A DNA stretch of 64,000 bases from Malacoraja senta (Eukaryota). Below the pieces are notes generated by a model. That model did no database searches, was not told where the DNA came from, and worked only from the letters and a program-made list of their open reading frames with translations. Below, piece by piece: positions 7,680-50,489 of this stretch. Made by a program: the position numbers and the translations under genes. Where the stretch lies: contig CM075987.1 of NCBI GenBank assembly GCA_038087875.1, forward strand, positions 23,190,001 through 23,254,000, given 5' to 3'. The first letter of the stretch is position 1. Each line of letters starts with the position of its first letter.

Positions 7680-8408
<729 letters not shown>

Positions 8409-48395: not shown

Positions 48396-49760
48396 TAAGA
48401 AAGAAGAAAGATTTGCTCTTCTACAGCGCTCTTCTCAACCTCAGGCATCTGGGCAGCCAGAAATGGATCATGATTCCATGGGGCCTGTTGTGGGTGATGT
48501 CCATATACCCTGTGAGATTCCACGGGGCCTGTTATGGGTGATGTCCATATACCCTGTGCCACTTGTTGTAGAATGTCTCAGGCATCTCAACCTCAGGCAT
48601 CTGAAAGGACTGCAGCCAATTTGTGTACAACTGGGGCACACTTGCTGCTTTTTCTGAACCAAAATTAGGTATTAGTTTCTGGCCCGTACTCCAGGAAGAA
48701 CTTACTGCTCTCTTTTGAAATAGCTTTTCTGTGATCTTTAATATTCATTCGAGAGGGCAGGAAAAAGGTTTGTGATTTTACGAGCCCAGTGAGACGGCCC
48801 GAATTTTAATCAGCCCGAACCAGACCAGCAGTGAATTCCCTGAGCCTCTCTGACAGCGGAGCAGCAGCCATTTTGTGATCCCCATGCCTGGGGTGACAAG
48901 TAAGCCCATTATGTTCTGGATGCTTCAGGGACATAAGTTAATTCCAGAATAAAAGCATTGTGTTTTGCCGGGTAACTGTTCGCTTGCATTTTCACGCGGC
49001 CTACAACAAGAGAGAGAGATTTCCTTAGAGTCGAACAATCTGGCGGCAGATAATGGCAAACCGTCAAAGGTAATCTTGATTAAGGATCAGGGGGGGGAAA
49101 CTGATGCAAAGCAAAGCTGGTGTATTCATTAACTGCTGGGAACTGAGTTTTCTGCAAAATATAATGAGTTACCAGCACATTGTGACATCTCTCTGCTTGA
49201 ACTAAAGGCATAGTGACTTCCTATGCCTGCTTCCCACTGCTCAAGTGCTCCCACTGATTTCTTTTGAAAGGAGGAAATGAATTTGTTGAAAGATGTGCGA
49301 TGATGATTTCAGAAAGAAGTGCAGGTGCTCATTCATCTTAATAGTATCACTTGTCGGCCGGCTAAAGGCTAGGATTTATTCCAAGCTTCATCTCTCCACT
49401 GGACTTGACTGAAATTAATATTTGTCACTTACATTGTGATGGTTGCGTTTGCATTGTGACCGGCGAAGAGTTACGATCCCCTTCACAACACGAGGCACCA
49501 TCCATGTTCCCCAGGCACCCTCAGGCTGTAGAATTGTTGAGTGAGTGATATTCATCCCGACTGACCCTGAGATGAGGTGAATCCTGACTGTGATTTTGCC
49601 AACAGGACCGAGAGGGATGTTTCACTACTTTTATCCATTAGTATTCAGGCTGTGCTTGTATATAATCTATCAAGTTAAGCTTTGGCCAAGTAAGAGTTAG
49701 AGAGTCAGGTCCCATTCGAAGAACTTGGTTCTCTTGTTCATACAGTACGTGGGATGTGGG

Positions 49761-49827
49761 GGCCCCACAGCAGAAGCGTCCACGTCGCGGGGCTGGAAGC
49801 TGGAAGTATCCTGAGCTAATTCTACCA
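49761..49827 (+). ncRNA. HDV-like (CPEB3-like) ribozyme, partly decayed
   Basis: GGCCCC-A-CAGCAGAA-GCG-UCCACGU-CGC-GGGGCU-GG-(P4)-C-UAA-UUCUACCA. P1 has 6 bp with G-U; P3 and P1.1 are intact; distal P2 is mismatched. Confidence 0.7.
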
Positions 49828-49955
49828 CCACCGTCATCTATTGCCACAAGTGATGGCTCCTACTGATTGTCGCCGGAAGCTTGCGTCCTTTTCAGGACGG
49901 ACGATGATAGCGATGTCAACATTTGAAACGTGGAAGATGGACAGGAAGGAAGAAG
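49761..49955 (+). mobile_element. 195-bp internally deleted Vingi-like retroelement with a 5' HDV/CPEB3-like ribozyme
   Basis: 12-bp TSD gtgggatgtggg at 49749-49760 and 49956-49967; gaaggaagaag tail; short ATG-initiated remnant (MAPTDCRRKLASFSGRTMIAMS) after the ribozyme. Confidence 0.75.
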
Positions 49956-50489
49956 GTGGGATGTGGGAGTTAATAGTCAATAACGGCTTTAGTGTTTTAT
50001 TTGTCACATATGCAACTGCACGGTGACATTCTTTTTACATCTATTACACATGCGGGCACTGACGATTTTGGTGCCATTATTCAAAGTCCAAAGTCCAGTC
50101 GGCTCATCCGGCCATCTTTGTGTCCCGGGGACACCTCCTGCAGCCGGCCTTGGTGCTGGAGGCATTACCTCGGTTCGCCCCCCTACCGGCCCTTCCTCCT
50201 CCTCGCCTCCGACATCTCTATCTCTCTCCCGGTCCCACCCACCGACCGACCGACGAACCTTCGGGCGGGCCCTGACGAGCCTTAGAGTCACAGAGTCATA
50301 CAGCACGGAAACAGGCACTTCGGCCCAATTTGTTCATACCGACCGACATGCCCCATCTACACTTGTCCCACCTGCCCACGTCCCCCCCCCCCCCCCCACC
50401 CCCCGTATCTCTCTAAACCTGTCCTATCCATGTACCTGTCCAAATGTCTTTTAAATGTTGCTCACTGAACTTGACGATAAGAAATGTTG

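Follow-up and report, generated by a model that had tools for sequence, protein, structure and literature searches.

Introduction

Mammals have very few conserved self-cleaving RNAs. The CPEB3 ribozyme is among them and has been linked to memory. HDV-like ribozymes also occur at the 5' ends of R2, RTE, LOA and L1Tc retroelements, where G1 of the ribozyme is the first base of the inserted DNA and where its presumed role is the release of the element RNA from a longer co-transcript. RTE elements are about 3.2 kb long, have a single ORF, carry HDV-like ribozymes and spawn bipartite derivatives.

In the passages of PMC8233481 and PMC2950038 that concern it, the CPEB3 ribozyme is described as a single conserved copy in the intron of one gene, reported only from mammals. 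A 2020 review suggests in generic terms, where it deals with conserved vertebrate ribozymes, that these, CPEB3 included, are domesticated mobile elements (PMC7761336). We found no literature naming Vingi or any other specific clade as the source of the CPEB3 ribozyme; primary work from 2009–2011 may bear on priority. The parts of PMC5786205 that treat ribozyme-bearing clades list RTE among them and do not list Vingi, and bipartite non-autonomous derivatives are given there as known only for RTE, Ingi, Vingi and R2. NARTc shares the 5' HDV-like ribozyme of L1Tc, as described in the relevant part of PMC3383444.

Here, we analyze a short retroelement with a predicted CPEB3-type ribozyme at its 5' end. 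It is located in a stretch of 64 kb (hereafter the window) from a skate, thus from a cartilaginous fish and not from a mammal. A 5' HDV-like ribozyme on a non-LTR retroelement is a known kind of object; the value of the present one is evolutionary.

Results

Besides the element described below, the window contains an olfactomedin-1 exon (7683–8408, minus strand), which is 99% identical to skate, 93% identical to elephant-shark and around 75% identical to mammalian sequences. The element itself spans 195 bp on the plus strand (49761–49955), and inspection of the window shows that it is bracketed by perfect 12-bp target-site duplications: gtgggatgtggg at 49749–49760 is identical to 49956–49967. 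Family boundaries and copy matches define it as one copy of a non-autonomous, putatively bipartite and Vingi-like retroelement family, named family F. Since the last base of the duplication is G, the window copy alone leaves the start uncertain by 1 nt, while other copies and the contigs of two public runs fix it at 49761. The first 67 nt (49761–49827) comprise a predicted CPEB3-type HDV-like ribozyme, identified by its match to RF00622 and by covariation across six families, with the predicted cleavage site 5' of G49761. The ribozyme is followed by a spacer (49828–49939) and by a 3' terminal motif (49940–49955) that reads GACAGGAAGGAAGAAG in the window copy and GACACGAAAGAAGAAG in the family majority, and that is common to the 3' end of the LINE family A described below.

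All parts of an HDV-type fold can be located on the plus strand. P1 joins GGCCCC (49761–49766) to GGGGCU (49789–49794) and starts with a G49761–U49794 wobble at the cut site. P3 (49776–49788) is formed by GCG (49776–49778) and CGC (49786–49788) around L3 UCCACGU (49779–49785). C49780 and C49781 of this loop pair in P1.1 with G49795 and G49796, the two G that follow the 3' strand of P1 (49789–49796 together). The 5' strand of P2 is CAGCAGAA (49768–49775) and its 3' strand UUCUACCA (49820–49827), while the family majority reads UAGCAGAA and UUCUGCUA. In the 3' strand, two pairs are lost to private changes, at positions 49824 and 49826. The irregular P4 (49800–49815), CUGGA-AGUA-UCC(UG)AG, was drawn by eye with five pairs and a 2-nt bulge and is partly recovered by the minimum-energy fold. 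It is followed by J4/2 CUAA (49816–49819), of which C49816 occupies the catalytic-cytosine position according to both the RF00622 match and the alignment column. Family F departs from the canonical type by a P1 of six rather than seven pairs, C for U in L3, GGAA instead of GUC in J1/4 and a P4 that is short and bulged. On sequence grounds, P1, P3 with L3, P2, P1.1 and the catalytic C identify the window ribozyme as an HDV-like double pseudoknot, for which self-cleavage 5' of G1 is predicted; the exact 5' ends that the copies have in common are indirect evidence of it.

The only Rfam match above gathering that cmscan returned for the 64-kb window is RF00622 (CPEB3_ribozyme) at 49749–49826 on the plus strand, with 38.5 bits (E 9.4e-7) at a gathering cut-off of 35 bits. 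None of the other HDV-type Rfam models matched 49600–50100 at E ≤ 10. A majority-like family F copy (L007) reaches 38.9 bits with RF00622 and matches no other Rfam family. Within the ribozyme, a 24-nt stretch is one position off the printed Rfam consensus. Nested minimum-energy folds were no better than those of shuffles (z from -0.66 to 0.70), as expected for a pseudoknot, and add no support for the fold. ARAGORN detected no tRNA-like head in 49600–50100, and a tRNA-headed SINE was rejected as a candidate, the head of the element being the ribozyme.

An earlier note, drawn up from the letters of the window, had proposed most of this anatomy: the 195-bp insert with its perfect 12-bp duplication, a first base that is G1 of an HDV-type double pseudoknot, P1, the 5' strand of P2, P3, L3, the CC/GG of P1.1, C49816 followed by UAA-UUCU, and a decayed state with a P1 of 6 bp. 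Each of these was found at the position given there, G49761 being fixed by the other copies and contigs. The single difference in 24 nt from the CPEB3 ribozyme, stated in that note, holds against the printed Rfam consensus, and the likeness to CPEB3 is specific in that RF00622 is the only HDV-type model to match at E ≤ 10. The note had further pointed out an ATG remnant in the spacer. The letters are present, but their reading as the relic of a parental ORF is unsupported: the spacer has no convincing similarity to an autonomous LINE or its ORF, and the best match to LINE-type loci covers 16 of 18 nt at E ~1.

Searching the genome with the 195 bp returned 2,039 first-look candidates. All 40 that were scored are 92–100% identical, and 38 of them begin at query base 1. 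The 30 copies that were fetched have unrelated flanks and all start at the same position, 28 with GGCCCC and two with one substitution. They end in ...GACACGAAAGAAGAAG, sometimes with extra AAG units. An exact duplication of at least 7 nt adjoins the 5' end in 21 of the 30 (median 11 nt); the remaining nine have none at this length and exactness, and some mismatched ones are seen by eye. When 12 loci were sampled by their 3' end alone from 325 pattern matches, nine reached G1 and three were 5'-truncated. Copies other than that of the window thus share its first G, as the earlier note had anticipated. A 32-nt ribozyme-core pattern (≤3 mismatches) matches the 1.94-Gb genome 1,449 times and its reversed control not once. 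In the contigs of the two public runs, unlike flanks stop at 49761 (72 and 56 loose ends) and at 49955 (20 and 12 loose ends), and contig depth between these positions is higher by orders of magnitude. Family F is a non-autonomous retroelement family.

The majority of the 30 copies retains a 6-bp P1 with G1–U, a 2-bp P1.1 (CC of L3 with the GG after P1), an 8-bp P2 of UAGCAGAA with UUCUGCUA, P3 GCG/CGC, L3 UCCACGU, a short bulged P4 and a C at the catalytic position followed by UAA. The distal P2, mismatched in the window, is restored in this majority, and the contigs of the two runs likewise read G at 49824 and T at 49826. Compared with the majority, the window copy carries 14 differences, three of which (8U>C, 64G>A and 66U>C) open the distal P2 and leave five of its eight pairs. 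Because these three distal pairs are lost, the window copy is probably inactive and a decayed relic. Many of the differences among the copies are CpG transitions.

Family F is accompanied in the genome by further ribozyme families. A search with RF00622 gave 102,231 first-look candidates, which is the count of a loose pre-filter; 59 candidates were scored, with 51 at E ≤ 1e-3, 39 over the cut-off and a best score of 64.2 bits. A strict canonical-core pattern with one mismatch allowed has 39 matches in the genome and none in the control. The 20 best RF00622 loci include at least five families besides F. Across nine loci, scores range from 38.9 to 63.8 bits, the families other than F covering 43.7–63.8 bits. 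Family A (L032 and others; 63.8 bits) heads an autonomous LINE. Family B (L035, L039) scores 54.5–59.7 bits and family C (L042, L046), with a P4 stem as in mammals, 47.7–51.4 bits. The remaining scores are those of family D (L045; 48.2 bits), an unnamed further type (L048; 45.8 bits) and family E (L049; 43.7 bits), which has almost no P4. For the window's own family F (window copy and L007), the range is 38.5–38.9 bits. Family C, the type closest to the mammalian ribozyme, has only four genome matches.

In an alignment of 16 ribozymes from six families, on which the HDV double-pseudoknot structure was imposed, 84.8% of the cells pair, as opposed to 37–46% when the partners are slid by 1–3 columns. 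Both sides have changed in 16 of the 27 pairs. Neither the observed pairing nor the covariation score was reached by any of 500 shuffles, whereas in further pair types the alignment did not exceed the shuffles (310 of 500). P3 has 93.8% of its cells paired, with compensatory changes; the values are 88.3% for P2 (five of eight pairs changed on both sides) and 85.8% for P1 (three pairs changed on both sides). The C–G of P1.1 is retained in all 16 ribozymes, and the catalytic column is C in 15, the exception being a CpG-decayed copy. P4 is the weakest helix (73.1%), largely because the P4 of family F is out of register with that of the other families in the alignment; most unpaired P4 cells belong to family F. 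P2 illustrates how the letters vary, with AGCAGAA/UUCUGCU, GGUAGAA/UUCUACC, AGCAGGA/UCCUGCU, AGAAGGA/UCCUUCU and GGAAAGA/UCUUUCC all occurring. Two further ribozyme variants were obtained on four contigs in a scan of metagenomes with the core pattern, which yielded no mammalian copy whose flanks could be compared.

Family A is a LINE of around 3.35 kb in which the ribozyme is followed by a single ORF of about 1,000 aa and a short 3' UTR, with the end ...CAAAGACACGAAAAGAAGAAG. Its ORFs of 940 and 1,014 aa match Exo_endo_phos, Exo_endo_phos_2 and RVT_1, carry a C-terminal Cys/His motif and gave no RNase H match in the domain search. Duplications of 11–13 bp adjoin G1 in four of the nine copies inspected (L031, L034, L036 and L040), and a fifth adjoins a copy without the first two G. 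The 3' end of family A reads ...GACACGAAAAGAAGAAG: families F and A share the last 16 nt and the type of ribozyme, while the ribozyme variant differs. Since the last 16 nt are shared, we infer that family F is mobilised by family A or a close relative.

The earlier note had envisaged an autonomous parent with an endonuclease and a reverse transcriptase. A single-ORF LINE with both is indeed resident in the genome; a parent with the family F ribozyme variant was not found among the loci searched. Specifically, a shorter pattern for a longer family F parent gave 325 matches, of which the 12 inspected are all variants of the short element, and BLAST of a majority-like family F copy against 20 LINE-type loci returned only the ribozyme core, one other family F copy and the match of 16/18 nt at E ~1.

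Discussion

The best explanation, and a very probable one, is that the insert is the dead copy of a short bipartite retroelement without coding capacity, which relies on a LINE of the Vingi type. Three parts make up this element: the 67-nt ribozyme, a spacer of around 110 nt and a 16-nt 3' end, GACACGAAA, followed by AAG repeats. In the proposed mechanism, the element would be transcribed by read-through within longer host transcripts, and the ribozyme would cut just 5' of G1 to yield an RNA that starts exactly at G1. The reverse transcriptase of the LINE would then recognise the 3' end and, by target-primed reverse transcription, copy this RNA into a nicked target. The outcome would be a full-length insert with G1 as its first base and a duplication of about 11 bp on its flanks.

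One alternative is that an internal promoter starting at G1 sets the 5' end, in which case the family F module would have lost cleavage and would serve as promoter or RNA-stability element. The first 77 nt of L1Tc act as both promoter and ribozyme according to PMC3383444, and the shortened P1 and irregular P4 of family F would fit such a role. Nonetheless, the family majority keeps G1–U, the 2-bp P1.1, the 8-bp P2, P3 and the C at the catalytic position, the core is kept by around 1,450 copies, and related families with canonical cores also have duplications adjoining G1, which makes this promoter unlikely.

The proposed assignment of the LINE to the Vingi clade is supported by its architecture, by printed Repbase 5' ends and by homologues in the same host groups. 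Family A has the Vingi-type architecture in that it is compact, with one ORF encoding an AP-endonuclease and a reverse transcriptase and lacking RNase H. Its length of about 3.35 kb compares with 3,128 bp for Vingi-2_Gav. The supplement of PMC5786205 (Kojima 2018) prints, in the portion relevant here, CENSOR alignments of the alligator SINE2-1_AMi to four Repbase Vingi elements (aligned spans: Vingi-2_Gav 2–74, Vingi-4_Crp 1–64, Vingi-2_SPur 395–451 and Vingi-1_BF 8–69). By eye, all four printed 5' ends carry the core ...AGCAGAAGCGUUCACGUCGCG..CCCCUGUCAG...CUGCGAAUUCUGCUAA or compensated variants of it, and their hosts are gharial, crocodile, sea urchin and amphioxus. These Repbase 5' ends start GGGGCCAUAGCAGAAGCGUUCACGUCGCG..CCCCUGUCAG...CUGCGAAUUCUGCUAA or as close variants, like the skate families, and since the four share the core, the designation of families A and F as Vingi-like is supported. 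In the passages of PMC5786205 concerned, the ribozyme core goes unremarked and the stretches figure only as the 'Vingi 5' parts' that SINEs carry. In the same source, SINE2-1_AMi ends in ...GGACACGAAAAAGGAAAGGA, like the tail of family F. The skate families do differ in sequence from the Repbase Vingi elements, and in family F, P1 is re-paired and shorter and P4 is odd. At the protein level, relatives that are 45–63% identical to family A occur in amphioxus, sea urchins, starfish, psyllids, moths, an aphid, teleosts, Anolis and others, many of them on contigs of 3.0–3.4 kb. The Vingi-like character that the earlier note had ascribed to the family is thereby corroborated, both by the core of the four Repbase 5' ends and by the resident 3.35-kb LINE with its endonuclease and reverse transcriptase.

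Alternatively, the autonomous partner could be a LINE of the RTE clade, which would agree with a compact single ORF with endonuclease and reverse transcriptase and with the mention of RTE, rather than Vingi, among the ribozyme-bearing clades in the pertinent parts of PMC5786205. Yet, exactly this ribozyme core is present in the 5' ends printed for four Repbase Vingi families, a SINE with a Vingi 5' part is printed with the end ...GGACACGAAAAAGGAAAGGA, and the homologues named include sea urchin, amphioxus and Anolis, which are Repbase Vingi hosts. Moreover, the ORF of family A has a C-terminal Cys/His motif, which RTE ORFs are not known to carry. An RTE partner is consequently quite improbable, more so than the promoter considered above, and a Vingi-type LINE remains the preferred partner.

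The likeness to the mammalian CPEB3 ribozyme extends to individual letters. Families A to E have the P3/L3 of the mammalian CPEB3 ribozyme, GCGUUCACGUCGC, from which family F departs by one change. J1/4 GUC is shared with the mammalian ribozyme and so is J4/2 CGAA, which is CUAA in families B and F, while the mammalian P2 letters AGCAGAA/UUCUGCU are identical in family F. The letters of the mammalian P4 stem are shared by family C and by the SINE2-1_AMi module as printed. Counted by hand, family A agrees with the printed Rfam consensus at 44 of the 53 positions that lie outside P4. Of the nine positions that differ, eight make up four compensatory pairs, located in P1 and P2, and the L3, J1/4 and J4/2 of family A are identical to the consensus. 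Even a decayed copy of family C (L042) matches the consensus at 54 of 67 positions, P4 stem included. This identity in unconstrained positions favours common descent over convergence.

Convergence without common descent with the mammalian sequence would be conceivable, given that no more than about six invariant nucleotides are required for an HDV-like ribozyme and that such ribozymes arise in a variety of settings (stated in parts of PMC8256844 and PMC2950038), and family F lies only 3.5 bits above the Rfam cut-off. However, the likeness lies in positions that the fold does not fix, such as the 44 of 53 outside P4 in family A. In addition, family C and the printed SINE2-1_AMi module share the mammalian P4 letters, the P4 stems of families A, B and D being unrelated, and no other HDV-type Rfam model matches at E ≤ 10. 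A convergent origin is therefore very unlikely, slightly more so than an RTE partner. Orthology with the CPEB3 ribozyme was rejected as well. The skate elements are multi-copy, their host is a cartilaginous fish, and of the ribozymes listed (39 canonical cores with one mismatch allowed and 51 model hits out of 59 scored), none lies within 1 Mb of the CPEB zinc-finger exons, which were located on four contigs of the skate genome. The skate elements are thus relatives and not orthologues of the mammalian CPEB3 ribozyme, although a diverged intronic copy may exist.

Since the same type of ribozyme heads Vingi LINEs, the CPEB3 ribozyme would most simply be a Vingi 5' end kept by its host. We lean towards the view that a Vingi LINE, or a short derivative of one, inserted into the CPEB3 intron in an early mammal and that its 5' end was domesticated as the mammalian CPEB3 ribozyme. 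The idea in the earlier note that the skate ribozyme may be a relative of the element that donated the CPEB3 ribozyme gains support from the specificity of the RF00622 match and from the Vingi 5' ends. A trace of Vingi in the human genome, X12_LINE, is listed in the relevant part of PMC5753468 (Kojima 2018 Mob DNA). Finally, that the window copy would itself still function as a ribozyme and serve the host at this locus is hardly credible: it does still score above the Rfam cut-off, but it is one of around 1,450 copies, has 14 private changes of which three open the distal P2, and is not linked to any gene; the one host exon recognised in the window is 41 kb away.

The CPEB3 sequence type thus heads whole retroelement families in a cartilaginous fish and, as far as the printed sequences go, across deuterostomes. 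This offers a concrete donor clade for the CPEB3 ribozyme and provides natural outgroups as well as a large set of natural variants with compensatory changes. The retroelement origin of the mammalian ribozyme becomes directly testable through Vingi remains beside it. If true, the Vingi clade as a whole, from echinoderms to amniotes, would have the CPEB3-type ribozyme as its ancestral 5' module, and the missing outgroup for work on the evolution of the CPEB3 ribozyme would be supplied. Vingi would join the LINE clades with an HDV-like ribozyme in use at the 5' end, which may also have a bearing on the Vingi 5' UTR in current gene-insertion tools, as described in the corresponding part of PMC13708176.

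Among known systems, bipartite elements such as the internally deleted Vingi-1_EE derivatives of hedgehog, RIME and NARTc of trypanosomes (Ingi clade) and the short, internally deleted R2 elements are non-coding, retain only the 5' and 3' ends of a LINE and borrow its enzyme, as described in the portion of PMC5786205 on these elements. Unlike those internal deletions, family F has no longer parent with the same interior among the loci searched, and its spacer may therefore not stem from a simple internal deletion of the resident LINE. With the 5' ribozymes of R2, RTE, LOA and L1Tc, the skate group shares G1 as the first base of the element. Rfam does not score those ribozymes as CPEB3-like, whereas the skate group does score as such, with up to 64 bits. 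Compared with the mammalian CPEB3 ribozyme, the skate ribozymes have the same fold and nearly the same letters; unlike it, they are multi-copy, form the first 54–79 nt of retroelements and vary by compensatory change.

Other features of the window

The only clear host coding exon recognised in the window is an olfactomedin-1 (noelin) exon on the minus strand (7683-8408), which is 99% identical to a skate protein. Most other long open reading frames look like repeat-derived peptides. Downstream of the ribozyme-bearing element, 23 bp from its right duplication, a second high-copy repeat (49990-50205) begins. The contigs of the two public runs compared with the window place the edges of this repeat at about 49990 and 50152 and show many internal deletion joints.

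Target sites and duplicated copies of the short family

Many target-site duplications of family F, the short non-autonomous family to which the window element belongs, start with an A immediately 3' of the ...GAAGAAG tail (L006, L007, L009, L010, L013, L019, L020, L023 and others). This A may reflect a preference of the nick site, or else microhomology of the target with the AAG tail. Two family F copies, L015 and L016, lie around 250 kb apart on the same contig; their identical flanks indicate that a segmental duplication, and not a second insertion, gave rise to the pair.

The resident LINE and its relatives

One copy (L041, a minus-strand locus) of family A, the resident LINE with a CPEB3-type ribozyme at its 5' end, carries approximately five tandem 26-nt repeats of the 5' part of the ribozyme (oriented positions about 186-330), which precede the complete ribozyme by around 140 nt. 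[quoted passage not shown] The protein encoded by L041 has homologues with 45-63% identity in very distant animals (amphioxus, echinoderms, hemipteran and lepidopteran insects, a crab, a tubeworm, teleosts and Anolis), and many of the contigs bearing them are 3.0-3.4 kb long. Because this identity is unusually high for such distant hosts, horizontal spread of the LINE is a candidate reading worth testing.

Relation to the mammalian CPEB3 ribozyme

Only four copies of family C, whose ribozyme most resembles the mammalian one, were found in the genome. One of them (L044, oriented positions about 324-580) is a short element of around 255 bp with a ATAGTTGT duplication and a tail ending in ...GACATGAAAAAAAAAAGA. 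The most mammalian-like ribozyme type therefore also occurs as a short non-autonomous element. Two further CPEB3-type variants are present in eukaryotic metagenome contigs (L063-L066), each in two contigs, and the P2 letters of one variant equal those of both family F and the mammalian consensus.
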